DNA of 64,000 nucleotides from Candidatus Dojkabacteria bacterium (GCA_030950485.1 JAUZRK010000003.1:20228-84227), one strand, 5' to 3'. Shown: positions 13,812 through 40,136, counted from the stretch's first letter. The notes: a model not told the origin generated them from the sequence alone. Numbers and translations are program-made.

Positions 13812-14666
13812 TCAAGAATTAACATATTCTCCCTTCACATAGCTGCCTAATATTTTTAGCTTCTCGACATAACTAGACAACTCTTTTAATGCATTATTAA
13901 GTGCTTCATCAGCCATACCTGCTGCAACATCCACATAAAACCTATACTCCCAGTCTGTTCCTATAACAGGCCTACTTTCTATTTTAGTTAGAGATAAATC
14001 TCTATCAGCAAAAGCTCTAAGAGTCTTATATAATGAACCCGCTTCTGACCCTAGAGTAAATTGAAAAGTAGTCTTGTAACCATTATCTTCATTATTGACT
14101 ATTCTTTTTATTTCTCCTTCATCTTCTGGTCTACTAATCACATAAAATCGAGTATAATTTTTTGGGTTCTCATGAATGTTGTCTTCAAGTATCTCAAGAT
14201 TGTAAACTTTTGCCGCCATCTTACTAGCGCAGCCTGCTGATGTAATCATATTATTTTCAGCTACCATCTTTACTGAGCCTGCAGTATCTTCATGCTCATG
14301 AAATTTGATTTCTGGATGAGCCAGTTCAAATGGTTTTATTTGACCTCTTGCTACAGGGTGTACATAAATATCAGTTATGTCTTTAAGAAGTTTCCCTTTA
14401 TGGCCAATCAAATGAAAGTTAACTTTAACGTAAACTTCTCCAACCAATGAAACTGAGTAATTAGTAATATTGTCATAATTTTGATAAATAGATCCATATG
14501 TTGAGTTTTCAATTGGCACAACAGTAACGTCAGCAAGCCCTGATTTCAAATCTTCAAATACCTCTCTAAACGAACCTCGTTGAAGAAGATCAATTTCAGA
14601 TCCAAAGACTTGATCCGCAGCAATGTGCGAATAAGATGCTAAATTCCCTTGTATAGATACTTTCAT
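13812..14666 (-). CDS. pheA: Prephenate dehydratase (PDT + ACT domains), paralog 1; TGA stop
   Basis: PDT catalytic domain (VVPIENSTYGSI...) plus a C-terminal ACT domain with ESRP motif (LTKIESRPVIGTDWEYRFYVDV). Confidence 0.8.
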   Translation of the reverse strand: MKVSIQGNLASYSHIAADQVFGSEIDLLQRGSFREVFEDLKSGLADVTVVPIENSTYGSIYQNYDNITNYSVSLVGEVYVKVNFHLIGHKGKLLKDITDIYVHPVARGQIKPFELAHPEIKFHEHEDTAGSVKMVAENNMITSAGCASKMAAKVYNLEILEDNIHENPKNYTRFYVISRPEDEGEIKRIVNNEDNGYKTTFQFTLGSEAGSLYKTLRAFADRDLSLTKIESRPVIGTDWEYRFYVDVAAGMADEALNNALKELSSYVEKLKILGSYVKGEYVNS

Positions 14667-15838
14667 AATATTTCTGATAATTTTTTAATACCTTCATCTA
14701 TGCTCTTTAAATCAGGACTAGAAAAATTTAGTCTTAATTTATTCTTCCCATCTAATTTATTGGGAGTAAATAAAGTTCCTGGCACAAATGATACACCATT
14801 ATTAATTGCTTTTTTATAAATTAGATCAGAATCTATATCGTTCTCTCCTTGTAACCAAATAAACATACCCCCTTCAGGTTCTGCGTAACTATAACTCTCA
14901 GGTAAGTATTTATTCAAAGCTTCGACCATTATATCCTTTCTCACTTTATATATTGAGCTCATCTTTTTAACATTAGTATAGAATCTTTCATTGTCTAATA
15001 TTTCTACAACCACATTTTGAGCTAATACATTTGCATGAACATCAACTGAAAATCTCATTGCGTTTATTTGATCTATCAATTCAAACGGACCTGTATAAAA
15101 CCCTACCCTTAGTCCTGGCCCTATAGATTTAGAAAATGTTCCTAAATAAATTACGTTCTCAGCAGCTAAAGAGTATATGCTATTTATCTGCTTATCATTA
15201 AAGTTAATGTGTCCATACGGATCATCTTCAAGTACAATTAAATCATTGTATTTAATGATCTTTGCTAAAGCAGTCCTTCTTTGCTCAGACAAGGTATAAC
15301 CAGATGGATTTTGAAAAGTAGGAATCAAGTAAGTTAACTTAACATCATACTTCTCTATAAGTCTCTCATACTCACTAATTATTATCCCTTCAGAGTCCAT
15401 AGGTATAGGTACTATCTGTGCTTTACAACTTTGCATTGACTGTAAGGCTGCAAGAAAAGTACACTCTTCTACAAGCACAACATCCCCTTCATCTAAAAAA
15501 GCTTTACAAACTGTATCGATAGTTACTTGACTACCTGAAGAAATGCCTACACTTCTAGAATCAATCTCCAAATTTTGTGTTCTCTTTAAAAACCTTGCAA
15601 CGGCTTCTCTAAGTTGTGGAATCCCATTACTAAAACTATAGTTCATTAGTGATAAATCATTTTTTCCTAGAACCTTATCTACTGACTCTTTAAATAGTTC
15701 ATAATCAAGAGACTCTGCCGCTGGATGACCAGCTGCTAGTGAAATAAGATTGTCTACACCAAAGGTGCTTAAGCTATCACGAACAATCTTAGAGTCCATC
15801 AACCTATTTCTTTCTGATAACTTTTTAATATAATTCAT
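14663..15838 (-). CDS. Class I/II PLP-dependent aminotransferase (likely aromatic/prephenate aminotransferase from context)
   Basis: Fold-type I aminotransferase with the PLP-lysine block TFSKSIGPGLRVGF; start/stop overlap with the flanking pheA-like genes. Confidence 0.7.
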   Translation of the reverse strand: MNYIKKLSERNRLMDSKIVRDSLSTFGVDNLISLAAGHPAAESLDYELFKESVDKVLGKNDLSLMNYSFSNGIPQLREAVARFLKRTQNLEIDSRSVGISSGSQVTIDTVCKAFLDEGDVVLVEECTFLAALQSMQSCKAQIVPIPMDSEGIIISEYERLIEKYDVKLTYLIPTFQNPSGYTLSEQRRTALAKIIKYNDLIVLEDDPYGHINFNDKQINSIYSLAAENVIYLGTFSKSIGPGLRVGFYTGPFELIDQINAMRFSVDVHANVLAQNVVVEILDNERFYTNVKKMSSIYKVRKDIMVEALNKYLPESYSYAEPEGGMFIWLQGENDIDSDLIYKKAINNGVSFVPGTLFTPNKLDGKNKLRLNFSSPDLKSIDEGIKKLSEIL

Positions 15839-15847
15839 ATGTATTTT

Positions 15848-16678
15848 CTACTTATTTAATTTATTTCTATATCTTCCTATAATTGAATATTCTATTGTAC
15901 ATTTATCTAATATTGTTTTCAAACCTATCTCAGTTGATGAATCTACAAGCATGTCTATCCAAAAAGCATATTCCCAATTTGTATCTGGGATTGGCCTTGA
16001 TTCAATCTTTGTTAGCGATATGCCTATACCTCCGATACTAGTCAAAAGATTCGCTAGTGATCCAGCAGAGTGCGATACTCTATATATAACGGATATTTTC
16101 TTATAGTCTTTAGCTGACTCCTCAACTTCAAATACATTATTACTAACAAATATAAATCTTGTAACATTATTAGAGTAGTTGCCTATATTTTCTATAAGAA
16201 TTTTTAAGCCTTTTTTCTTTGCAAGCTCAGCTGAACCAATACAAGCTTTAGTCTTATCTTTTAACTTCAGAATATCCTCAGCACCCGCAGCAGTACTTTT
16301 AGATTCGTTAACTCCATACCCTCTTTCATTAATCATTTCAGAACACTGAGCTATAGCTTTGGGATGAGAATATACTTCTTTAATATCTTTGATCTCGGCG
16401 CCTTCTAAAACTATGAGATTTAAAACTATATCCATATTTGCTTCGCCTACTATCCTAAGCTCTTTCTTGAACATAAAATCTATATTTACATGTACTGTAG
16501 AAGTAATTGAATTCTCGATCGGTAAAACTCCAATGGTATTAGAATTAGTTATACACCTCTTTACAATTTCGTTAAAATTGTCTGATGGTTCTAAATTATA
16601 ATCGTTAGAATCAAAACATTTAGAAGAAATAATTCCAGAATAACTTTGTTTTGGTCCTAAATAATATACTGTTTTCAT
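15848..16678 (-). CDS. Prephenate (or arogenate) dehydratase, paralog 2 (PDT + ACT)
   Basis: PDT domain (IGVLPIENSITSTV) and ACT domain (LTKIESRPIPDTNWEYAFWIDM); clearly a paralog of the 13812-14666 gene. Confidence 0.75.
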   Translation of the reverse strand: MKTVYYLGPKQSYSGIISSKCFDSNDYNLEPSDNFNEIVKRCITNSNTIGVLPIENSITSTVHVNIDFMFKKELRIVGEANMDIVLNLIVLEGAEIKDIKEVYSHPKAIAQCSEMINERGYGVNESKSTAAGAEDILKLKDKTKACIGSAELAKKKGLKILIENIGNYSNNVTRFIFVSNNVFEVEESAKDYKKISVIYRVSHSAGSLANLLTSIGGIGISLTKIESRPIPDTNWEYAFWIDMLVDSSTEIGLKTILDKCTIEYSIIGRYRNKLNK

Positions 16679-17439
16679 TCTTCTTTAAGTCTTAATTGTT
16701 TGTTAGATATTTGAGACATAGTCTCTTCTATTGACATCTTTATTTTGTCAAACTGTTTACTACAGAATGGATTAAAGTTATACATATCCTCAGTAATCTC
16801 CATATCAGCACCGATCCTTTCTACAAAATCGTGCATTCTTGATGCTGATACTGTGTCAATTTCAGTCCTCTTCATACTCAATGTTTTAAGCACATGAGAA
16901 ATAGTTAGAGTAGTAAAGTGAAATTCTGAGGCTAGTTCATCATGTCTTTCTGCTGAGATTTCTACAATTTTGTTTTTTAGCTTAATAAATATATCCTTTA
17001 CTATATTGTAAATCTCCTCACTTGCGTTAATATTTTCAATCACAATATTAAAACCCTCTACAGAATTATTATTATGTTTATAAGACTCTGGCCCATACAT
17101 TGGATGGGTACAAATTTTCATTACTTCTACCGGAAGCTCTTTAATCATAATTTTTTTGGGATAAGATTTAATAGAACAAACATCTATAAATATTGAATCA
17201 TTATCTATATACTTTGCTACTTCCCTAGTAACTTTTTCAAATGCTTTTATTGGCACTGATGGAATGACAATGTCGCATTTACAAGCATCTTCAAAATCAA
17301 AAAAGTCTTTGTTATCAATTTTCTTTGACCTTGAAGAAAATTTAATTTGGACATCTACAATTACATCTTCAAACATTGTTTTTAATAGTTTCGAAAACTT
17401 TCCATATCCTATTATCCCTATTGTTTTAATTTCCTTCAT
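16675..17439 (-). CDS. tyrA: Prephenate/arogenate dehydrogenase
   Basis: N-terminal Rossmann GxGxxG (IGIIGYGKFS) and the TyrA catalytic block (CTHPMYGPES). Confidence 0.7.
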   Translation of the reverse strand: MKEIKTIGIIGYGKFSKLLKTMFEDVIVDVQIKFSSRSKKIDNKDFFDFEDACKCDIVIPSVPIKAFEKVTREVAKYIDNDSIFIDVCSIKSYPKKIMIKELPVEVMKICTHPMYGPESYKHNNNSVEGFNIVIENINASEEIYNIVKDIFIKLKNKIVEISAERHDELASEFHFTTLTISHVLKTLSMKRTEIDTVSASRMHDFVERIGADMEITEDMYNFNPFCSKQFDKIKMSIEETMSQISNKQLRLKEE

Positions 17440-17707
17440 CTTCTCTAGTTTTTAAAATAAAGTCATGAATTGTGTTCATTAAATCTGAGATTAACTCTTT
17501 GTCAACTCCAACTTTTGCAGCTAGATCTTTTTTCGACTTCAAAACCTCTTCCCATCTTCCTGGAGCATGAGATGGCATACCAGCATCCTGCTTTGTATCC
17601 CAAGCTCTAGAAGCCGCATTTAATCTTTCTGCAACCCAACAAACGGACATATTATCTAATAGATCTATTGAGTCTCTTAATTGTTTTAGTTTTTCTTCTT
17701 GTGTCAT
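17426..17707 (-). CDS. Chorismate mutase, AroQ class (monofunctional)
   Basis: 93-aa helical protein with the AroQ pattern LKQLRDSIDLLDNMSVCWVAERLNAASRAW... Confidence 0.7.
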   Translation of the reverse strand: MTQEEKLKQLRDSIDLLDNMSVCWVAERLNAASRAWDTKQDAGMPSHAPGRWEEVLKSKKDLAAKVGVDKELISDLMNTIHDFILKTREDEGN

Positions 17708-17735
17708 ATTATTTAATAATTAATAAGTTATATAA

Positions 17736-18092
17736 TTAAAATTCTATTCCCCCTTTTATATTCTCAGTGTTATTTCTTATTAGGAAGAGTCTCTTTAAAA
17801 ACTCAACTATCCCTAAATCTTCATTACTCCAATAATAAATCATTGCCCACAGATTGCCCTTATTTGCTGCTATTTCTGCTGAATCCCACTCTCGACCTTT
17901 TGTATCCATATTAAATTTTGCTTTCAGACTTCCAACTATCCTATTCAACATACCTCTCAAACCTTCTACAGCTGGTCTCTCAGAGGAAGCAATAGCATAT
18001 GTTGCCATATTAGCGTTTGGTATATCAGTTCTTGATTCCTCTAAGTCTGTCAAAGGATCTTTACCCGTATATCTTATATTTGGGTCATTCAT
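17736..18092 (-). CDS. Hypothetical protein (118 aa) inside the aromatic-branch operon
   Basis: ORF tightly packed between chorismate mutase and the upstream micro-ORF (3-nt spacing); no recognisable motif. Confidence 0.5.
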   Translation of the reverse strand: MNDPNIRYTGKDPLTDLEESRTDIPNANMATYAIASSERPAVEGLRGMLNRIVGSLKAKFNMDTKGREWDSAEIAANKGNLWAMIYYWSNEDLGIVEFLKRLFLIRNNTENIKGGIEF

Positions 18093-18094
18093 AA

Positions 18095-18229
18095 TTACTC
18101 TTCTCTCCCATACGTCTTTTCTGCTAAATAAGTAGCTCCATCTTCACCTTGCTTAAGCCTTCTACCTGTACCCATTATTAGGTCAACTCCACCCCTACAA
18201 ATATCGGGGAGTGATGATAGTGATGTCAT
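18095..18229 (-). CDS. Micro-ORF, 44 codons (MTSLSSLPDICRGGVDLIMGTGRRLKQGEDGATYLAEKTYGREE); coding status uncertain
   Basis: ATG 21 nt after the stop of the 450-aa gene; its TAA stop lies 2 nt before the ATG of the 118-aa gene. The packing suggests translational coupling. Confidence 0.25.
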   Translation of the reverse strand: MTSLSSLPDICRGGVDLIMGTGRRLKQGEDGATYLAEKTYGREE

Positions 18230-18250
18230 ATTTTTTATTATTGAGTCATA

Positions 18251-19603
18251 TTAATTAACAAGCATTTGGATCAATTCATTGTCTTTATCTAAATCTAGAT
18301 TATGAGCCATTGTAGCCAGTTCCAAAAGTTGATCTGCAGTTAATCTTAAATTTCCTACCCATGCTCTGCCATTTACAAACTGAGTCGAAACAGTTCTAAT
18401 AACTCCCCCCATTCTAATATGAGCTGATAGAAGACCGTATCTGAGCTTTTCAATTTCGCCATTATCCATTTTTATATATATTTCATCTGGTATTACAGCT
18501 TCTTCAATTACGAATCCTCTAAAGTCGGGGTTTTTACTATATTCATCTATAATCAGTTTACTAATTGCTTCAACCTTAGAATTAATATCACCGAACTCCC
18601 ACATAAAAACCTCTACACCATCTCCGTCTGTCCCAAGCCTTCTTTTTAAAACTACATCTGCAACATTATGCTTTTTATGCATTATTCTCAATGTTCCTCT
18701 AATATATAGATTTAATTCCTCAATAGTCATATCACTATCTAGTTCAAGGCAAAACCCTAAACCAAGAGCAAGATCTTCAGGGTTACCACCTGCCGCAGAA
18801 ACTCTTTGATATATTTCGGACTTAGTTTTATCTGGCAGGTTATTTGAATACATTATTTCTTCAGCAGTTTTACTAGATATATCATTTATCTCTTCCCTGA
18901 GGAGTTTAGGATATAAATTTCCCTTATCTATTAATTTAGCCGACTCTGGACCATTAGCCATTACAAACAGTGGAACTCCAACTTCTTGACTTAAGTAAGA
19001 TATAATTATTTTCATTTCAAGATCAAGGTGATACAGATCAATAGCAATATTTTCCTTTCCAAGCTCTTCTATTAAAGTGGCTATCACTTGAGAACCTTGA
19101 GTTTTTAAATTATCTTTATGATCTCTCATAGCCAGTAAAATACTGTGAGAAGTGTAATACATTTCTTCATTACCTATTTTTAATTGTATTCCCTTGTATT
19201 GATCTCCATCTGCTCTAGGGTACCCTTCTCTCCCAGAAAGAACGGTAATGTCACCCTCAGCCTTAGACATGTAGGTTCTCTGAGTACAGACTGAATTAAT
19301 ATCTATTCCCATTTTAGTTGCAACATCGATTTCATGATGATTCATGTCCCTTGTCCCTGAGGCTATAGATAAAGTCCTCCTAGGTGAAATACCAGCTAAA
19401 TGACTATCTATATTTCTTCTACTTAAAGGTATCATTGCTTGCTGACTTAAATGTATATCTAAACTATTCATTAATTCTTCTCCAAGTAATTCCTCACCTA
19501 TTGCCTCTACTCCGCTGTTTGTCAAAACTATTAAGCTACCTCCTTCTTCGCCAAAGGAGAGTCTATCGTATTCTTCTCCAATTTGTAAATTTTCTATAGC
19601 CAT
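18251..19603 (-). CDS. Hypothetical protein (450 aa), GC-richer than its surroundings; function unknown
   Basis: Long ORF with GGG/CCC-rich codons unlike the neighbouring genes; no motif I can assign with confidence (an ATP-grasp ligase is a loose guess only). Confidence 0.55.
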   Translation of the reverse strand: MAIENLQIGEEYDRLSFGEEGGSLIVLTNSGVEAIGEELLGEELMNSLDIHLSQQAMIPLSRRNIDSHLAGISPRRTLSIASGTRDMNHHEIDVATKMGIDINSVCTQRTYMSKAEGDITVLSGREGYPRADGDQYKGIQLKIGNEEMYYTSHSILLAMRDHKDNLKTQGSQVIATLIEELGKENIAIDLYHLDLEMKIIISYLSQEVGVPLFVMANGPESAKLIDKGNLYPKLLREEINDISSKTAEEIMYSNNLPDKTKSEIYQRVSAAGGNPEDLALGLGFCLELDSDMTIEELNLYIRGTLRIMHKKHNVADVVLKRRLGTDGDGVEVFMWEFGDINSKVEAISKLIIDEYSKNPDFRGFVIEEAVIPDEIYIKMDNGEIEKLRYGLLSAHIRMGGVIRTVSTQFVNGRAWVGNLRLTADQLLELATMAHNLDLDKDNELIQMLVN

Positions 19604-19623
19604 AAAAATATATATTATAAAGA

Positions 19624-19660
19624 TAAAAAAAATCCCCTTTCGGGGATTTATATGTTTTTC
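19624..19660 (-). terminator. Rho-independent terminator (bidirectional shape) after the DAHP synthase gene
   Basis: aaaaaaaa-aatcccc-tttc-ggggatt-tatatgttttt; on the minus-strand RNA the hairpin is followed by a U8 tract. Confidence 0.7.
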
Positions 19661-19837
19661 TACTAGATATGCAAAAACAACCCCTAATTAGGATTTCCAA
19701 AAAAGTAAAAGAAAAAATAGTTTTGGTTTGTTTTTGTTTTATTATTCACGAACTGATGATAACAGAAAGTTTAAATATTTAAAATATTTTTCACTAATAT
19801 TTACAGATAGTCTTATGTACTGCCTTATAGATATAGC

Positions 19838-20742
19838 TTATAAGTCTCTATTCTTCGATATATCAACGACTAGTTTTTTAAGCTCACTGATAGAAATATG
19901 CTGCCCAGTATCTGTTTTAGATGTACCAACTTCTATTAAAATCCCATCATATAAAAATCCGCTTTCATTCAACTTCATATTAGCTGCATCAATCGTAGCA
20001 TCTAAAATACTGTCTCTCATTCTTGGACCATAGGCATGGCTTGGGTCAAAGTACAACTTACAACCGGTTCTCTTTTTTACTCTAGCTGCATGATTATGCA
20101 TAGGATAATTTCTATAGTCAGCTTTTTCTGGAATATCAAATCCTCTATGAATCAATACCGTGTGATTCTTATTATCAGAGTAACTAAGCCTTCCCAAGCA
20201 CTCTCAATAGGAGTTTTTAACTCAGAATTTTTATAATTATCTGCAACTTCAATATGTTCACCAACCCATTTCCCATTTTTTAATCCAACTACCCATTCAT
20301 TTTCTTTTGCAACAGCACTCATTTGCATTACTTGCCAGCCTAGTTGATTTACAGAAGGGTTCCAAATCATAACTTTTTGCTTTGGTAATTCTCTTGAGAG
20401 AACAGGTAACTGTACTATTGGCATCATTATTTCTGTAGCAATATTCAAACCTGTCTTTTTAATTATTTCTTTTGCAATTTCTATACTTGGTGGAATTTGA
20501 AAATCTTTAATATTCCCTCCCTTTGGTAGAAGTTGGAAATTGTACATTAAAGTTTCGTAATCCATTCCCATTCCCTCTCCTGACTTATCTAAAACTGTTC
20601 TAGATTTAAGACCTACAATTCTTGTTCCTGTAATTGCCATTTTGCCATTAATCTCTATCTTTGCAATTTCTAAAATCTCCTTTTTATTATTATCTATAGA
20701 ACATGGTCCCGCATAAATTGAGAACTTTTTATTTTTAATCAT
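19838..20742 (-). pseudogene. 3-deoxy-7-phosphoheptulonate (DAHP) synthase, class I-beta/KDO8PS-like, split by a frameshift near 20165-20175
   Basis: Two overlapping ORFs (196 aa + 119 aa). Together they carry GPCSI, KSRT...GxG, EIM, GLKNG, ...LIHRG and CKLYFDPSHAYG (DPSH) motifs in DAHPS order. The junction ..ESAWEG/LSYSDNK is explained by a 1-nt deletion in a G-rich run. A sequencing error cannot be excluded. Confidence 0.6.
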
Positions 20743-21179: not shown

Positions 21180-24100
21180 CTATAATTCCAAGAAATCCTC
21201 AGTTTTTGGTCGTATTAATTTATTAAATACAATCTTAAAAAGCTGAGGATTTTCTATCTTTATTCCGTCTATATCTTTTATAGAATCTATAAATTCATCG
21301 TATGATGATATATTAGCTTTAATTTTTATCTTTTCTTCCCCCATATTTATTTCGAATACAGCAAATGTTTTGTCACCTTCATTTATATCTACTATTCCAT
21401 TATTTATATCTATAAACTCACCCAAGATAAATCTTACTTTTGACATGTCATACCTATGAAACGCCGAAGTAACAGCGAGCTGTGGAGAAAGCGCAAATAC
21501 TCTATCAAGCTGATCTAATAGCCTGTCGATATCTCCAGGAACCATTTCTAATGGTAAAGACTTTATTAAATTCATATATAAATTAGCTTTGGTCTCCTTA
21601 TTTCCTGGAATTCTATGAATAAATTCAGGGTAAAGAAAAAGCATACTTGCTAAGTTTGATGAAACATTAGCAACTCTCTGTCTCATAGATTCATCTTCTG
21701 ATTGACCTAGCATTGATAAGACTTGTAATAAGTTAGTAAGGGCATTTAACCTTACTTTAGAAAATTCCATGACGATAACTTCAGGCAAAAGTCTAATCAT
21801 GTCAGAATAGATATCCGAGATTTCAACTCCCGCATAAAATGCTACTACTGGTTGATTAGTAATCAGTTGAGCTTTAGATCTTGCTGGTATCAAAGTACTC
21901 TTAATCAATATATCTAATTTCTCAGGTGCTGTTTTAGCTTCTACCAGTTGTTGTAAAAGATCAACATTCTTAGGCCTTTTAAACATAGGTTCGTATTTTT
22001 GTTTAATTAAATCTATAACCCTACCTTCTTGTTCAACATCTCCATACATAGTGTAAAGAGAAGCTAATGTAATGCCAAAAGCTCTTAGGTCCTTAGCGTT
22101 AATTATTTCGTCTACAGATTGCTCTAAAAACTGAAGCGCTGTTGCATCTTTTTCTCCCTCTTCTTTTAATGCTTTATATGAATCATATAATAATATAGCC
22201 TTAATCCTTGGATTAGTTTTGCATAACTCATAAAACTTTTCTTCAGACTCACTCATTGATTGCTTAAGTCTCAAAGGCATTAGCTTATATTGGTAGCTTA
22301 CTGCTAATCGACCTATAACTTCAGCAGAATTCTCGTCAATTTCACCAGCATAATTGGCAATAGTATTAATTAATTTAATTAGCCTTTGACTATTAGAGAC
22401 TTCAATCCAAGATCCATCAACAGTTTCATTTAATTCTTTCCATTCAGTGTACAAACTAGCCTTAAATACCAAATCTGGGTTATCCAAAGCATTTAAATCA
22501 ACTCTATCTATAAAATTGAATGTAGATTCACCATTTACAAATGCCTTTTCTGCAAGATCTAAAAAAATCATTGAACTTTCAGCTTTTAGGTTAATATATT
22601 CTTCATTCGCCTCTAGGCGTCTAAACTGATCAGCCGTATTATCTAGAAATTGTGCATACACTAAATTATCACCATTAAAAAGAGAAACGTCATTTTCTTT
22701 TACATCTATTGGTGAAACTTCTAGTGTCCCTTGATAAAATTCGTTAGGAAGAATTCTTATACTCCCATCTGCTTCTTCAAATCTTCTAATCGCCTCGATA
22801 CTTTCCAAATAATCTAATTGAGCTCCTAATGTTTCATTTGAATCTACTTCTAAAATCCTACTAAGTGTGTTTAACTTTATACCTAATTGAAAACCTCCGT
22901 AAGCAGCTTCTAGTACTTTTACTCTTATTTCATCCTGTTTCGTAAATTGTTTGTCTCTAAGTTGATTATAAAGAATCTGAATATAGGTAGAATTGCCATC
23001 TCTAATAGAAGCATTATTATATCCGTATTCCTGTCTTCCATGCATTGCTTCTAATTTTGCGAGATATATACTAGCCTCCGACCATCTTTCATTTTCAATA
23101 AAAAGCGTAAGAGTTCTATCAAAATACATTCTAGGTAAGTGATGTATGTGTGATTCAAGAAACTCTTGTGCATTTATAAATTCTCGTTTAGCTTCAAAAT
23201 CAACATCAACTAAGAAAATGTGATAATTTCCTTCTGTTCTGAAGTGAGACACATCACCATCAATTCCTAAATTGTCATTAATGCTACAAGCTATTCTAAT
23301 TCCTGGTTCTCCTCCAGCCTTGATCATATGTCCTGCGGCTCCCCCTAAAGCATTTACATGAATATTAAATTGTGGCGAATTATAGAATCGAAAAGGTATA
23401 GCATTATCAACTGCTGCGGTTATTCTATAGTTTTCATCTAGACGATTATCATGGAGAACCCTAAGTACTTTAGAGATCTCTGCAGTTTGAGCCTCCAGAA
23501 TAATAAAACCATCTGCTCTAACTTTAACATCGTAGCCTAGTAATCTTGCTTTAGACACAGCCTCTAAAATACTCTGCCTGAATTCTTCATCATAATCATC
23601 TCCATTAACATTTCCAATAAAAATAATACTCTGTCCCGCATCTACCTTATCAGCTATTACAATTTCCTGAGTAGCAGTTTTTATATTTTGAACTATCGTA
23701 GTTTTCCAGCTATCTTCAATACTACCTGCTCGAACTTTTAATTCCTGCTTATTTTGCCATATGGATTTAGCACCTACTTTTAAGTGCACATGTGTATCAT
23801 TATGTGCTTTTAATGATTTCAAATTCTTATCTACTTCTTTACTTCTAGTTTCACAGATAATCCCTACTTTATCAGGAGTATTTACATTTCCTATAGCATT
23901 AAAAGTTGTAGTTAATGAATCGCCCTCGGTTGTCCATCTTAGGTCATCTAATATACCAGGATTTAAAGCTATAAGAATGTCATCTAGATGTTCTACGTAG
24001 CCTAAAATCTCTTCCTCACTTCCATAGAAATGAATCCAAGGACTATCTCCCATTACGTCTACTATTACTGCTTTAGCAGCGCATACTTGCCCAGATCTAT

Positions 24101-24527
24101 TTAATTTATCTATAACCATTCCCAAATTACCAAAAGAGCTTCGATATAAGTTTATACCTCTCTCTACTTGTTTCTTACTAAAACCAACTCCATCAATTTC
24201 CCTCATAGCTTGAGGTCTAACATTTTCAGCTAGACTTCTCGCAGCATGTAGATCCCCATCGCTTTGATAATATACGAGAGTTAAATATATTCTTTCTGGA
24301 GAATAACCGTTGCTAGAACAAAAAGCTAATAAGTTATCAATGTCTAGTATAGCCACTTCAGAACCTTCACCAAATGCTCTAGAAAACAAATCAGGATTTT
24401 GCTCATGTATTTCATTAATTGCAGCTAGTGGATCTAACCTAAAATTGTCTAATACCTCTGTCTCAAACTTCCCATTTTCAGACGTTTCACTATAAAGCAG
24501 ATCTTCAGCATCTCTTTTATCTGACAT
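21180..24527 (-). CDS. Large hypothetical protein (1115 aa), no recognisable domain
   Basis: Uninterrupted ORF; no Walker motif, no HExxH, no Cys clusters. Convergent with the NHLP-like gene (8-bp gap) and divergent from the M50 protease gene. Confidence 0.6.
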   Translation of the reverse strand: MSDKRDAEDLLYSETSENGKFETEVLDNFRLDPLAAINEIHEQNPDLFSRAFGEGSEVAILDIDNLLAFCSSNGYSPERIYLTLVYYQSDGDLHAARSLAENVRPQAMREIDGVGFSKKQVERGINLYRSSFGNLGMVIDKLNRSGQVCAAKAVIVDVMGDSPWIHFYGSEEEILGYVEHLDDILIALNPGILDDLRWTTEGDSLTTTFNAIGNVNTPDKVGIICETRSKEVDKNLKSLKAHNDTHVHLKVGAKSIWQNKQELKVRAGSIEDSWKTTIVQNIKTATQEIVIADKVDAGQSIIFIGNVNGDDYDEEFRQSILEAVSKARLLGYDVKVRADGFIILEAQTAEISKVLRVLHDNRLDENYRITAAVDNAIPFRFYNSPQFNIHVNALGGAAGHMIKAGGEPGIRIACSINDNLGIDGDVSHFRTEGNYHIFLVDVDFEAKREFINAQEFLESHIHHLPRMYFDRTLTLFIENERWSEASIYLAKLEAMHGRQEYGYNNASIRDGNSTYIQILYNQLRDKQFTKQDEIRVKVLEAAYGGFQLGIKLNTLSRILEVDSNETLGAQLDYLESIEAIRRFEEADGSIRILPNEFYQGTLEVSPIDVKENDVSLFNGDNLVYAQFLDNTADQFRRLEANEEYINLKAESSMIFLDLAEKAFVNGESTFNFIDRVDLNALDNPDLVFKASLYTEWKELNETVDGSWIEVSNSQRLIKLINTIANYAGEIDENSAEVIGRLAVSYQYKLMPLRLKQSMSESEEKFYELCKTNPRIKAILLYDSYKALKEEGEKDATALQFLEQSVDEIINAKDLRAFGITLASLYTMYGDVEQEGRVIDLIKQKYEPMFKRPKNVDLLQQLVEAKTAPEKLDILIKSTLIPARSKAQLITNQPVVAFYAGVEISDIYSDMIRLLPEVIVMEFSKVRLNALTNLLQVLSMLGQSEDESMRQRVANVSSNLASMLFLYPEFIHRIPGNKETKANLYMNLIKSLPLEMVPGDIDRLLDQLDRVFALSPQLAVTSAFHRYDMSKVRFILGEFIDINNGIVDINEGDKTFAVFEINMGEEKIKIKANISSYDEFIDSIKDIDGIKIENPQLFKIVFNKLIRPKTEDFLEL

Positions 24528-28012: not shown

Positions 28013-28735
28013 TTAGACTTCGACTAATTCACCTTCTTCTAGTGTTACCACTCTGTCCGGTCCTATATTCTCAGAAAAATATCTATCGTGTGAAATTAAA
28101 ATCATAGCGCCTTTAAATTCTCTAAGTGCTTCTTCAATTACCTCTTTTGTTTTAATATCTAAATGATTAGTTGGCTCATCAAGAATTAAACAATCGTACT
28201 CATGGTAAGTAAAGATTGCGAATGAAAGCCTTGCTCTCTGTCCAGGACTTAATTTACCAATTTTTTGAGACCTTAAATCTTTATCAAAAAGAAATTTTTC
28301 TAATTGTCCGAAAGAACTACTGAAAGAAACATTAGCTTCTCTCATAAAATACTCATCAACTCTCATTTCCATCGGAAGATGTTCTTGATTTTGAGAAAAG
28401 TATTTCCATTTAAGGTTTTCTCCCCATTTTATAGCTCCCTCTACTGGCTTTAGTTCATTAACTAAAAGCTTTATAAAAGTAGATTTACCAGTACCATTAG
28501 GTCCGACTAACCAAATTTTCTCATTTCCATAAATCTCTAGATCTACACCATTAATCAATGGTGTCTTCTCCTCCCCTTGAGGGAAGGCTGGGAGGGGTGA
28601 TGCTCCCCAATCAAAGACTAAGTCATTAACTTCTAAAACTCTCTTAGTTCTACGAACTTCACCTTCAACAGAAATACTTCCTATAAGCTCTTCTTTATAT
28701 GTGCCAATTTCATTTCTACTTACTTCTCTTTTCAT
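28013..28735 (-). CDS. ABC-F family ATPase, C-terminal half (ABC2 domain)
   Basis: Walker A GPNGTGKST, signature LSPGQRARLSFA, Walker B LILDEPTNHLD, H-loop ISHDRYF; ATGA start/stop overlap with the N-terminal half. Confidence 0.75.
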   Translation of the reverse strand: MKREVSRNEIGTYKEELIGSISVEGEVRRTKRVLEVNDLVFDWGASPLPAFPQGEEKTPLINGVDLEIYGNEKIWLVGPNGTGKSTFIKLLVNELKPVEGAIKWGENLKWKYFSQNQEHLPMEMRVDEYFMREANVSFSSSFGQLEKFLFDKDLRSQKIGKLSPGQRARLSFAIFTYHEYDCLILDEPTNHLDIKTKEVIEEALREFKGAMILISHDRYFSENIGPDRVVTLEEGELVEV

Positions 28736-29499
28736 TCTTGTTTTGCAGCTCTTACAGCCTTACCTCTTTGCTTAGCATCTTTAAGTTTTCTACTATTTTC
28801 TAAAAGTTTTTCTAACTGCTCTCTCTTTTTTTCTTGAGCTTTAAATAATCTTGCTCTCTCTTCAATATAATAATCTTTCGCTTCAAGAAACTTATCATAG
28901 TTTCCATCCCAGATTCTTAATGTCTGCTCGTCAATTTCAAAAATTTTATTTGTAAGTGAATTTAAAAACATCCTATCGTGTGAGATCATAATAATGATTC
29001 CATCGAAGTCCTTTAGAAAGCCTTCAAGCCAAATGATTCCATTAATATCTAAGTGATTAGTTGGTTCATCAATTAGTAAAACTGTCGGTTCTTTTATTAA
29101 AACTTTTGCAAGATATAATTTCATTTTCTGCCCCGGACTAAGTGTTTTTACTTCATCAAACTCATCCACATCAAGTTCAAGTTTTGCCAATAATCGATCG
29201 ACTTTCCACATATCGGTATAGTGATTCGCTACTAGTGATTCTAAAAACTCTCCTACAAATGTAAGCTTCTCAAAACTTAGGTCTAACTCTTGAGGTAAAT
29301 ATCCAATTTTCTCTTCTTTAGTCAGGCTTACATGCCCTTTATCTGGATCTTCTAACCCTGCTAAAATTTTCATCAAGCTAGTTTTACCGCATCCATTCAG
29401 ACCAACAAGACCTACTCTTTCTTTATTTCCAAGTATGAAATTAACGCCAGTAAAAAGTAGTTTTTTATATTCAATTTGTAAATTCTCAGCTTTTATCAT
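28732..29499 (-). CDS. ABC-F family ATPase, N-terminal half (ABC1 domain + linker)
   Basis: Walker A GLNGCGKTS, signature LSPGQKMKLYLAK, Walker B LLIDEPTNHLD, H-loop ISHDR, then a charged helical linker (ARLFKAQEKKREQLEKLL..). Ends ..CAAGAATGA, overlapping the next ATG. Confidence 0.75.
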   Translation of the reverse strand: MIKAENLQIEYKKLLFTGVNFILGNKERVGLVGLNGCGKTSLMKILAGLEDPDKGHVSLTKEEKIGYLPQELDLSFEKLTFVGEFLESLVANHYTDMWKVDRLLAKLELDVDEFDEVKTLSPGQKMKLYLAKVLIKEPTVLLIDEPTNHLDINGIIWLEGFLKDFDGIIIMISHDRMFLNSLTNKIFEIDEQTLRIWDGNYDKFLEAKDYYIEERARLFKAQEKKREQLEKLLENSRKLKDAKQRGKAVRAAKQE

Positions 29500-38298: not shown

Positions 38299-38346
38299 AA
38301 AAAAATAATACAGTTAAAAGAATAATTAATCTACAGAAATAGAAAA

Positions 38347-40136
38347 TTAAATTATTGATTTCGCAGCTGAGAAAATTGCATAAGGTACTCTAGCTGGAGA
38401 AATGCTTATGCTGTCGACTTTAGCTTTATTTACTAAAAAGTCTATAGAATCATTCTCTGAAGTCTGTTCTCCACAAACACTAATATGGATACTAGGATTT
38501 GCTTTTCTCGCCTTTTTGACTACATCTAATATTAATTGCCTACTCCCTCAATATCTAATGATACAAATGGATTCTTAGAAATTATTCTTTTTTCTTTATA
38601 AAAGTCTAAGAAGTTAGCAGTATCATCTCTAGATAACCCAAAGGTTGTCTATGTAAGATCATTAGTACCAAAACTAATAAAATCAACCTCTTTTGCTATT
38701 TCACTCGCTAATATTGCAGCACGTGGAGTTTCAACCATTGCTCCAAATCTAAATTTATCAAGCTCAATGTACTTATTTACTTCAACTTTAAATAATCTAA
38801 GTTCAGCAGTATCTGAAATTAATGGTGCCTCTATTACAATCTTAGGAGTTTTAATTTTATTCTTTTGTAATTTTGATATGGCCTTATTTATAGCTTTAGT
38901 TTGAATCTCTATAATTTCTGGTCTTTTTAATAACATTCTTATTCCTCTAAATCCTAACATAGGATTTTGCTCGTGCATGAATTCAATCTTAGATTTAAGA
39001 GAATTTACAGAAATACCTAATTTTTTTGATAATAATTTAACCTCGCTTTCGCCTTTTGGTATGAATTCATGTAAAGGTGCGTCTAAGAATCTTACTACAA
39101 CATCTTTACCCTCAAGCAGTTTAAAGATTGAATAGAAGTCCTTAGATTGACTACTTATTATTCGCTCCTTTAGTTCTTTAGAAGTTTCTTCACTAAAGAT
39201 AAGTTCCCTAATTAAATTTGCATTATCTCCCGTAAACATATGCTCCGTTCTTAACAAACCTATTCCTTCAGCCCTATATTGCAGTGCTGTTTTAATTTGA
39301 TCGCTTGTATCTGAATTTGATAAGACTTTAATAGTTTTATTTTTAACGGAAATATCAATAAATCTAGAAATAAATTTCTTATCTATTGCACTTGTTAATT
39401 TTGCCTTTCCTAAATATATTGTAGAAAGAGAGGTATCTATTGTTATAGTTTCTCCCTCGTATTTTTTAATAGATTCAAAATCTACATTTGTAAGAGTAGG
39501 TACTCCGAGTCCTTTAGCAACTACGGCAGCGTGTGATGTTATTCCTGCGGAGTTTAGTAGTAATCCCTTAACTTTACCAAAAACTTTAAGATCTTCAGCG
39601 GATACTTCCTTTAAAAACCAAATTGCATCTTGTTTCTGCTTTAATAAGCTAAGTGTATTTTCTTTACTTGTTGATAGAATCCCACTTACTGCACCTGTTG
39701 ATATTTCATCTGCTGTAGTTATTTTTTTAAGTTCTTTTGCATTAGAAATTTTTTTAACAAAGAAATCTTTATATATATCTAGTGTTGTTAGGTTTAATAA
39801 GTCTGTTTCAGTTATTAGCTTACTATCTAAATATTCAAAATATGTATTTCCGAATTCTTTCGTAGATAATTTTGCTTTCTTCTTGATTATTATTTTATAT
39901 TCTAAATTCTTGAAATTTATTAATATTAAAAATTCAATAAGAGATTTTTCTTTATACTCTTCTTCCTTTAGTAGTCCAACAATTATATTTTTAAGCTCAG
40001 TAGGAATAGAATTAAAGCTATATACTTTATCATCATTAAACGACAGTAGATTTGCTCTAGGTTCAACTTTACCCGTAAGTGTATCTCGAGAGAAAACTGA
40101 TCCGAAGTGTGTATAATCTATGTTATTTTTCGTCAT
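38347..40136 (-). pseudogene. PEP-utilising enzyme (pyruvate phosphate dikinase-like His + TIM-barrel domains) lacking the N-terminal nucleotide-binding domain; in-frame TAG plus a 1-nt frameshift in the C-terminal region
   Basis: Phospho-His domain GITSHAAVVAKGLGVPTLTNV, PEP-binding GLLRTEHMF and FISFGTNDLT-TAG-TTFGLSRDD (Gln codon replaced by amber). The reading frame shifts after ..DIEGVG, then continues ..SVCGEQTSE...ISPARVPYAIFSAAKSII. The N-terminal ~180 aa are unrelated to the PPDK ATP-grasp domain. Confidence 0.6.

Follow-up and report, generated by a model that had tools for sequence, protein, structure and literature searches.

Does a 44-codon open reading frame (ORF) that sits tightly behind a large gene of no recognized family encode a small protein of its own? 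The question is raised by a 64,000-nucleotide (nt) stretch of DNA from a Candidatus Dojkabacteria bacterium (GCA_030950485.1 JAUZRK010000003.1:20228-84227; hereafter the window), a low-GC (31%) bacterial chromosome segment of the candidate phyla radiation (CPR)/Patescibacteria. On its minus strand an ORF of 450 amino acids (aa) is followed by this micro-ORF, and an original prediction made from the sequence had read the pair as a GC-shifted protein with a translationally coupled, genuine small protein, reminiscent of a peptide ligase and its precursor peptide. The present analysis does not support an enzyme with a coupled micro-protein or precursor peptide as first stated. With a probability of about 0.88, the 450-aa ORF, the micro-ORF and a 118-aa ORF behind them are instead colinear pieces of one ATP-grasp ligase gene of ~620 codons. 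Two lesions would break this gene, an in-frame TAA after codon 450 and a -1 frameshift, and the micro-ORF would be the stretch between them, which by chance holds an ATG seven codons past the TAA. The pieces and lesions are read as follows.

18251-19603, minus strand: 450-aa ORF, read as the N-terminal ligase fragment (the N-terminal domain, the central domain and the beginning of the C-terminal domain)
18251-18253, minus strand: in-frame TAA closing the 450-aa ORF, from three-frame translation
18095-18229, minus strand: 44-codon micro-ORF, read as the middle ligase fragment (residues 459-496 of the reconstruction, then six out-of-frame codons)
18116-18121, minus strand: GAAAAG, probable -1 frameshift site, from frame analysis (A4 run at 18120-18117)
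17736-18092, minus strand: 118-aa ORF (118 codons), read as the C-terminal ligase fragment from a homologue-only profile match and invariant columns

The two ORFs, the peptide quoted for the micro-ORF and the spacings were all exactly as the original prediction had given them: the micro-ORF ATG lies 21 nt (7 codons) past the TAA of the 450-aa ORF, and its stop lies 2 nt ahead of the ATG of the 118-aa ORF. The micro-ORF shares the reading frame of the 450-aa ORF and is parted from it by a single TAA (...LVN*YDSIIKNMTSL..., where the asterisk is the stop); in the three-frame translation the frame beyond the TAA stays open (...ELIQMLVN*YDSIIKNMTSLSS...). The 118-aa ORF begins ...VIMNDPNIRYTG; its frame is open for 17 codons 5' of its ATG, from 18143, and extends over the last codons of the micro-ORF. 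The -1 shift that joins the two frames is confined to 18143-18098 and, judging from the homopolymer there, is probably a 1-nt deletion in the A4 run at 18120-18117. Because the first two ORFs have a common frame and the open frames of the second and third overlap, the tight spacing that had been taken for translational coupling is the spacing of fragments of one gene. By our own estimate, the chance of an open frame of 44 codons at ~31% GC is ~0.03. The GC shift is not real: the 450-aa gene has 34.7% GC, and the mean over genes is 31.9% (standard deviation 3.2; z = 0.87).

Comparison with homologues also provides evidence for a single gene. Scans of the 450-, 44- and 118-aa ORFs against Pfam, NCBIfam and PHROG gave no match (for the 450-aa ORF, no Pfam family at E <= 0.1), and a word-indexed homologue search, with the single sequence and with an alignment, returned the protein's own record only. 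Relatives came only from HMMER, run exhaustively on 1.84 billion representatives, which yielded 11 weak ones besides the protein itself (E values of 4e-15 to 8e-4), of which nine single-copy relatives of 546-618 aa formed the alignment set. All nine extend ~150 residues past the end of the 450-aa ORF and carry the motifs GG-x-D-x-x-x-G and Q-D-x-N-x-x-x-x-G-x-E there. Fifteen other genomes were recovered: the homologous region lies inside one ORF in 14 of them (550-733 aa when counted from the first possible start, a measure that overstates some of the genes), and in the fifteenth no ORF is callable on the matched strand. In 14/14 callable genomes the micro-ORF segment is therefore internal to a longer ORF, which contradicts its expected conservation as a separate gene. 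No separate counterpart was found at any homologous locus, and the small ORFs beside the homologues P0010 and P0004 are unrelated to it in sequence.

The pieces were rejoined as a 622-aa sequence in which the stop is written X and the -1 shift is assumed at GAAAAG (18121-18116). This sequence gave one BLASTP alignment with the best homologue, P0002 (residues 25-538, E = 9e-23), which spans both lesions, and with the GAAAAG junction it aligns end to end with the nine homologues in a 10-sequence alignment. Invariant columns fall in all three pieces: K320 and E367 are within the 450-aa ORF, G472, D474 and G478 are in the micro-ORF (inside CRGGVDLIMGT), and the 118-aa ORF, which opens with MNDPNIRYTG, has the invariant D507-x-N509 near its start as well as G514, P544 and W586. 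The segment ICRGGVDLIMGT of the micro-ORF aligns to 'lvtgGiDfaiGt' at profile positions 442-453. Circularity was avoided by building a profile from the nine homologues alone, without the window sequence, and running it on every six-frame stop-to-stop segment in the window, 972 in total. Among these the 450-aa segment ranked first (E = 3e-42, profile positions 38-417) and the 118-aa frame segment second (E = 0.012, profile positions 464-558), colinear with it; the real micro-ORF segment gained ~6 bits over shuffled versions and the real C-terminal piece gained 8-9. Past the TAA, 8/9 of the residues invariant in the nine homologues are kept, compared with 21/29 before it, and the downstream pieces have therefore not decayed. 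Intact downstream pieces together with the lesions fit either very recent inactivation or residual error.

The AlphaFold2 model of the rejoined ligase (predicted local distance difference test, pLDDT, of 73.6; predicted template-modelling score, pTM, of 0.79) has the three-domain ATP-grasp fold, and Foldseek agrees, returning ATP-grasp enzymes at a probability of 1.0. In the model the micro-ORF forms the strand 470-482, which is paired with the strand 498-508 from the next piece. In ATP-grasp enzymes the equivalent hairpin bears acidic and Asn Mg ligands in a D/E ... E/D-x-N pattern, and the Lys and Glu that bind ATP are conserved. By their position D474 and D507-x-N509 are putative Mg ligands, and the micro-ORF would supply one strand of a β-hairpin bearing putative Mg/ATP ligands. 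None of K320, E367, D474, D507 and N509 varies across the 10-sequence alignment, and all five lie on the expected strands; their roles are assigned by position only. As D474 is in the micro-ORF and D507-x-N509 is in the 118-aa ORF, no single piece should be a complete enzyme. What had been proposed as the precursor of a ligase/precursor-peptide pair encodes an internal β-strand of the ligase C-terminal domain with the invariant Gly and Asp residues; the micro-ORF is part of the catalytic core of the enzyme and not a substrate.

On this model, the best explanation of the rejoined protein is an ATP-grasp carboxylate-amine ligase of an unannotated family with a fold closest to BesA/PGM1, and the intact enzyme is predicted to join an amino-acid carboxylate and an amine by an amide bond; in the ATP-grasp superfamily such ATP-dependent ligation passes through an acyl-phosphate intermediate. 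The suggestion of an ATP-grasp or PGM1-like enzyme thus held at the level of the fold, but no sequence model detects it. The ten homologues had no relevant Pfam family at E <= 0.01 (one unrelated transposase-domain match), NCBIfam gave no match to the ligase, hidden Markov models of the PGM1/BesA-type families (Pfam pre-ATP-grasp, PGM1 C-terminal) and the sequences of solved members gave no significant match, and the family profile had 0 hits at E <= 10 among PDB sequences. The nearest folds are BesA (L-propargylglycine--L-glutamate ligase; PDB entry 8yi6), PGM1 (pheganomycin peptide ligase; PDB entry 3wvq) and a Streptomyces ATP-grasp peptide ligase (8ynd). Sequence identity to these three is 9-12%, so that the likeness is at the fold level only. 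The ligase described here is ~150-200 residues longer than BesA/PGM1-type enzymes, and it is an interrupted copy in a Phe/Tyr biosynthetic operon, whereas BesA and PGM1 belong to natural-product clusters. Further structural matches include PylC, LysX/ArgX, BacD, PurD/PurK/PurT, Ddl, glutathione synthetase and RimK, among others. The match to BacD and the L-amino-acid ligases (bacilysin; PDB entries 3vmm and 3vot) is weaker than that to BesA or PGM1, no equivalents of BacA, BacB, BacC or BacG were identified beside the ligase, and the two PDT-domain proteins of the operon score as ordinary prephenate dehydratases in Pfam; a parallel with bacilysin is an idea only.

Several observations weigh against a single interrupted gene. 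No relative of more than 31% identity was found in any collection searched, no intact orthologue came from a sister genome, and the metagenome scan gave no close relative bearing one. Around the frameshift, the hairpin loop exceeds that of the homologues by ~13 residues, which makes the exact junction uncertain. The ATG context of the micro-ORF resembles the A/T-rich starts of real genes, so the fragment may be translated, and the kept invariant residues are compatible with a functional split enzyme too. A purine-rich GGGAGAGAAGAG before the 118-aa ORF was considered as a Shine-Dalgarno (SD) site for independent translation and was dropped. SD sites are nearly absent, with an anti-SD duplex of -4.5 kcal/mol or stronger at only 2/71 predicted starts, and starts are A/T-rich; in a genome essentially without SD sites, their presence or absence is therefore uninformative at these ORFs. 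Three other candidates were set aside. Reassignment of the stop codon was rejected from stop-codon usage in the window, where TAA is the main stop (TAA 50, TAG 14 and TGA 4 among 68 genes), a usage that gives no indication of recoding either; an origin of the TAA from double compensating indels is unlikely, there being stops nearby in both other frames; and for an RNA element within the micro-ORF region Rfam gave only noise (a snoRNA match, E = 3.7).

If the three ORFs are pieces of one gene, the lesions either are real or were introduced in sequencing or assembly. Real mutation, giving a recent pseudogene or a split gene, is modestly favoured. The alternative within the single-gene interpretation, that the organism holds an intact ligase gene of ~620 codons, is a tentative possibility of clearly lower probability. 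Both can be judged against a public metagenome-assembled genome (MAG) of Candidatus Dojkabacteria, GCA_030949735.1, in which a hypothetical protein is identical to the 450-aa protein. Window positions 13348-44922 are 99.83-99.88% identical to its contigs JAUZSD010000001.1 and JAUZSD010000013.1, and the differences are nearly all indels of 1 nt, mostly in homopolymer runs, with 15 indels against a single substitution in 17.4 kb. Such 1-nt homopolymer indels are a typical signature of long-read error. This pattern favours error, as do the position of the proposed frameshift in an A4 run, the finding that all four frameshifts in the window are single-base deletions, and the undecayed downstream fragments. 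The public MAG has many more broken genes, and wherever the two versions differ in the intactness of a gene the window holds the intact one; the window therefore looks better polished. Yet while it resolves every gene-breaking indel of the public MAG, the window keeps the ligase lesions, which are common to both versions, and the ligase TAA, like a TAG in the PPDK-like gene described below, is a substitution and not an indel. The two public contigs overlap around window 17284-18024, and at 17828-17837 both are shorter than the window: JAUZSD010000013.1 is in frame there (WAMICVG, compared with WAMIYYWS in the window), and JAUZSD010000001.1 has one extra T and is frameshifted. Error would leave the identity of the micro-ORF unchanged; the micro-ORF is no independent gene except on the least likely readings, given further below.

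Lesions of the same kinds interrupt three further genes of the window.

19838-20742, minus strand: DAHP-synthase-like gene, very divergent
28013-29499, minus strand: ABC-F (EttA/YbiT-like) gene
38300-40136, minus strand: PPDK-like PEP-utilising enzyme

In the first of these a -1 frameshift leaves ORFs of 196 and 119 aa with a 46-nt overlap; both halves show weak similarity to NCBIfam PRK08673 (E = 0.001 and 0.009), one to each of two consecutive stretches of it, and the gene contains KNG, HRG and DPSHAxG, which we take to be motifs typical of the family. The ABC-F gene is split into ORFs of 255 and 240 aa with a 4-nt overlap, which match EttA residues 109-291 and 340-518, and its break is probably a 1-nt deletion near an A4 run. 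The PPDK-like ORF, which is without the N-terminal nucleotide-binding part of PPDKs, has an in-frame TAG at 38651-38649 and a -1 frameshift ~120 nt downstream (GGCC to GGC); the TAG falls at what is presumably the conserved Gln of the PPDK motif GTNDLTQ.

An enzyme that works in pieces, or is rescued by recoding, is unlikely, even with its three versions taken together. In the first the lesions are real and pieces of 450, 44 and 118 aa, made by termination-reinitiation, assemble into a non-covalent active ligase; in the second the frameshift is erroneous and the products are 450 aa and ~164 aa; in the third, read-through of the TAA and a -1 slip at GAA-AAG yield the full-length protein. In favour of this reading, 8/9 family-invariant residues are kept past the stop, both lesions lie in loops or variable regions of lower pLDDT in the model, an ATG with the A/T-rich context typical of this genome follows each lesion, and the ligase gene is still first behind a regulated leader (see below). 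A-AAG is a weak -1 slippery sequence, which also counts in favour of recoding; neither a stimulatory structure nor a canonical X-XXY-YYZ heptamer could be seen. A 44-aa piece with a single core β-strand is an unlikely stable subunit, neither a precedent nor a second example of a conserved split was found, and similar lesions in three unrelated genes of the window argue for damage or error over design. One form of this idea, with lesions that are real and tolerated, is very improbable: a naturally split BesA/PGM1-like ligase as the first product of a Phe/Tyr-attenuated CPR operon, with the 44-aa ORF as a strand-donating micro-subunit. Jointly with the chorismate mutase, prephenate dehydrogenase, prephenate dehydratases and aminotransferase of the operon, this ligase would then yield a dipeptide or γ-glutamyl conjugate derived from an aromatic amino acid, following bacilysin- or Bes-like logic.

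The proposal of a complete 450-aa peptide ligase of PGM1/PGM2 or graspetide-like type with a coupled 44-aa precursor or substrate is the least credible of all and is largely refuted: it had the fold class right, it accounts for the tight spacing of 21 nt and 2 nt, and peptides may be substrates for part of the family, given that an unrelated 56-aa ORF is conserved immediately ahead of the distant homologue P0004 in two contigs, but the micro-ORF corresponds in alignments to an invariant stretch within the ligase and lies in the frame of the 450-aa ORF, homologous loci have no counterpart small ORF, and the 450-aa fragment is without the D-x-N motif and the entire C-terminal third found in every homologue. 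Even combined, a functional split or recoding and a precursor peptide carry a small share of the probability.

The interruption of a single ligase gene serves as a caution, in that a tightly spaced micro-ORF beside an orphan enzyme proved to be a fragment of that enzyme; checks of the frame relationship and of the length of distant homologues would expose such cases. The family itself is of modest value as one that has no Pfam or NCBIfam model, stands nearest to BesA/PGM1 and has amino-acid-tailoring neighbourhoods. Its members are ~570 aa long, are all 'hypothetical' in the source names on record, and are sparse and patchy in distribution (Actinomycetota, Cyanobacteria, Bacteroidota, Vibrio and Patescibacteria). 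Recurrent neighbours of the homologues are FAD-dependent (DAO) oxidoreductases, SAM methyltransferases, M20 amidases and C26 γ-glutamyl-type peptidases; a C-N hydrolase, a formyltransferase, a Cys/Met PLP enzyme, glutamate mutase and an Asp/Glu racemase also occur, and one cluster has an aminotransferase, a flavin N-oxygenase, TauD and a haem-oxygenase-like enzyme. Such neighbourhoods suggest that members form amide bonds on amino acids in tailoring pathways and that these bonds are hydrolysed later, and they resemble the γ-glutamyl 'protecting group' logic of the Bes pathway. No aromatic-amino-acid genes were found at the homologous loci examined, among which the Dojkabacteria context is unique. 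Our guess is that the substrate of the ligase would be a Phe/Tyr- or prephenate-derived acid.

Two further features of the family were seen at other loci. The 56-aa ORF (MSQAKASNTKAVSFELSDAELQAIASQTSNVEVNVAPTPNNNGYVIQNAPVPKSLV) lies just 5' of P0004 in two contigs (L020, 5718-5888; L021, 613-783) and adjoins a weak 2OG-Fe(II) oxygenase match; it is unrelated to the micro-ORF and could be a genuine precursor peptide for P0004. In Patescibacteria-type contigs (L017, 1-3403; L019, 1753-6127) the family is duplicated, in tandem or by fusion: one locus encodes a partial protein of 887 aa that holds one and a half copies, the other has adjacent genes of 618 and 596 aa, and a GATase/peptidase C26 gene lies directly 3' of each duplicated ligase locus.

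The predicted setting in an operon for aromatic amino acids was borne out. From the 5' end, the order on the minus strand is the DAHP-synthase-like gene, a leader, the 450-aa ORF, the 44-codon ORF, the 118-aa ORF, the aromatic genes, EF-Tu and the S10 ribosomal operon. Pfam assigns the genes downstream of the ligase as follows.

17426-17707, minus strand: chorismate mutase
16675-17439, minus strand: prephenate dehydrogenase
15848-16678, minus strand: prephenate dehydratase
14663-15838, minus strand: class I/II aminotransferase
13812-14666, minus strand: prephenate dehydratase with an ACT domain

These genes (13812-17707) are on one strand and are contiguous or overlapping, and an ACT domain is detectable in only one of the two prephenate dehydratase paralogues. 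A Pfam scan of the 20 largest of the 36 ORFs beyond the operon (24600-63435) gave none of the core shikimate genes (aroB, aroD/Q, aroE, aroK, aroA and aroC). A reduced CPR genome with a chorismate-to-Phe/Tyr operon headed by an ATP-grasp ligase is again of modest value.

This operon appears, from features of the leader sequence, to be under a classical ribosome-mediated leader-peptide attenuator. The elements upstream of the ligase are listed below.

19604-19837, minus strand: intergenic leader
19756-19783, minus strand: promoter-like site (TTTAAA, 16 nt, TG-n-TATCAT), 9/12 consensus matches with an extended -10 TG
19684-19749, minus strand: candidate leader-peptide ORF MNNKTKTNQNYFFFYFFGNPN, 21 codons from GTG (19749) to TAG (19684)
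19622-19683, minus strand: candidate attenuator RNA, from a terminator scan, Rfam RF01859 and masked co-transcriptional folding

The leader ORF contains seven consecutive aromatic codons, YFFFYFF (five Phe and two Tyr), the only intergenic 7/7 aromatic codon window in the 64 kb in all six frames. It is short, rich in regulatory codons as in leader attenuators, and placed 81 nt upstream of the first operon gene. An intrinsic terminator hairpin (19649-19630; AAATCCCC-GAAA-GGGGATTT, an 8-bp stem with four GC pairs and a T run to 19622) begins 34 nt past the leader ORF, and the end of the hairpin itself is 27 nt upstream of the start codon of the ligase. The Rfam Phe_leader model RF01859 matches 19623-19733 with 34.8 bits (E = 0.0035 in 4.5 kb, 2e-4 locally), below its gathering threshold of 55 bits.

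Folding under co-transcriptional masking gave three states. With the ribosome footprint on the Phe run, GGGG at 19683-19680 pairs with the CCCC of the terminator 5'-arm at 19645-19642 (-8.8 to -9.2 kcal/mol); a footprint over the stop codon prevents this pairing, and the terminator alone forms (-11.9 kcal/mol); and in a ribosome-free transcript the GGGGUUGUUUUUG segment is sequestered by sequence from the 5' side of the leader. The antiterminator appears only under such masking and was absent on equilibrium folding of the whole leader; it is weaker than the terminator (-8.8 versus -11.9 kcal/mol) and comes from one sequence, with no covariation. The states are those of a candidate four-segment attenuator of the classical kind for Phe/Tyr. 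The evidence for the promoter-like site is weak, since the consensus scan showed no enrichment of such sites over shuffles.

The arrangement resembles the Phe leader attenuator (RF01859, pheL-pheA type) in its short Phe-codon ORF, alternative hairpins, terminator and Phe/Tyr genes directly downstream, and differs in its GTG start, the Tyr codons mixed with the Phe codons, the sub-threshold score and the CPR host. The pheL genes described are gammaproteobacterial (PMC3082878), and none of the papers listed in a full-text literature search mentions a Phe/Tyr leader-peptide attenuator in Patescibacteria. If the attenuator is genuine, the ligase is the leading gene of an operon regulated by Phe/Tyr; standing first behind such regulation, the ligase would therefore have been a working part of aromatic metabolism at least until recently.

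Beyond the DAHP-synthase-like gene, an ORF of 1115 aa (21180-24527, minus strand) is without a match in Pfam, NCBIfam and PHROG. The public MAG carries a 1-nt indel at window position 21803 that divides this ORF into pieces of 909 and 196 aa.

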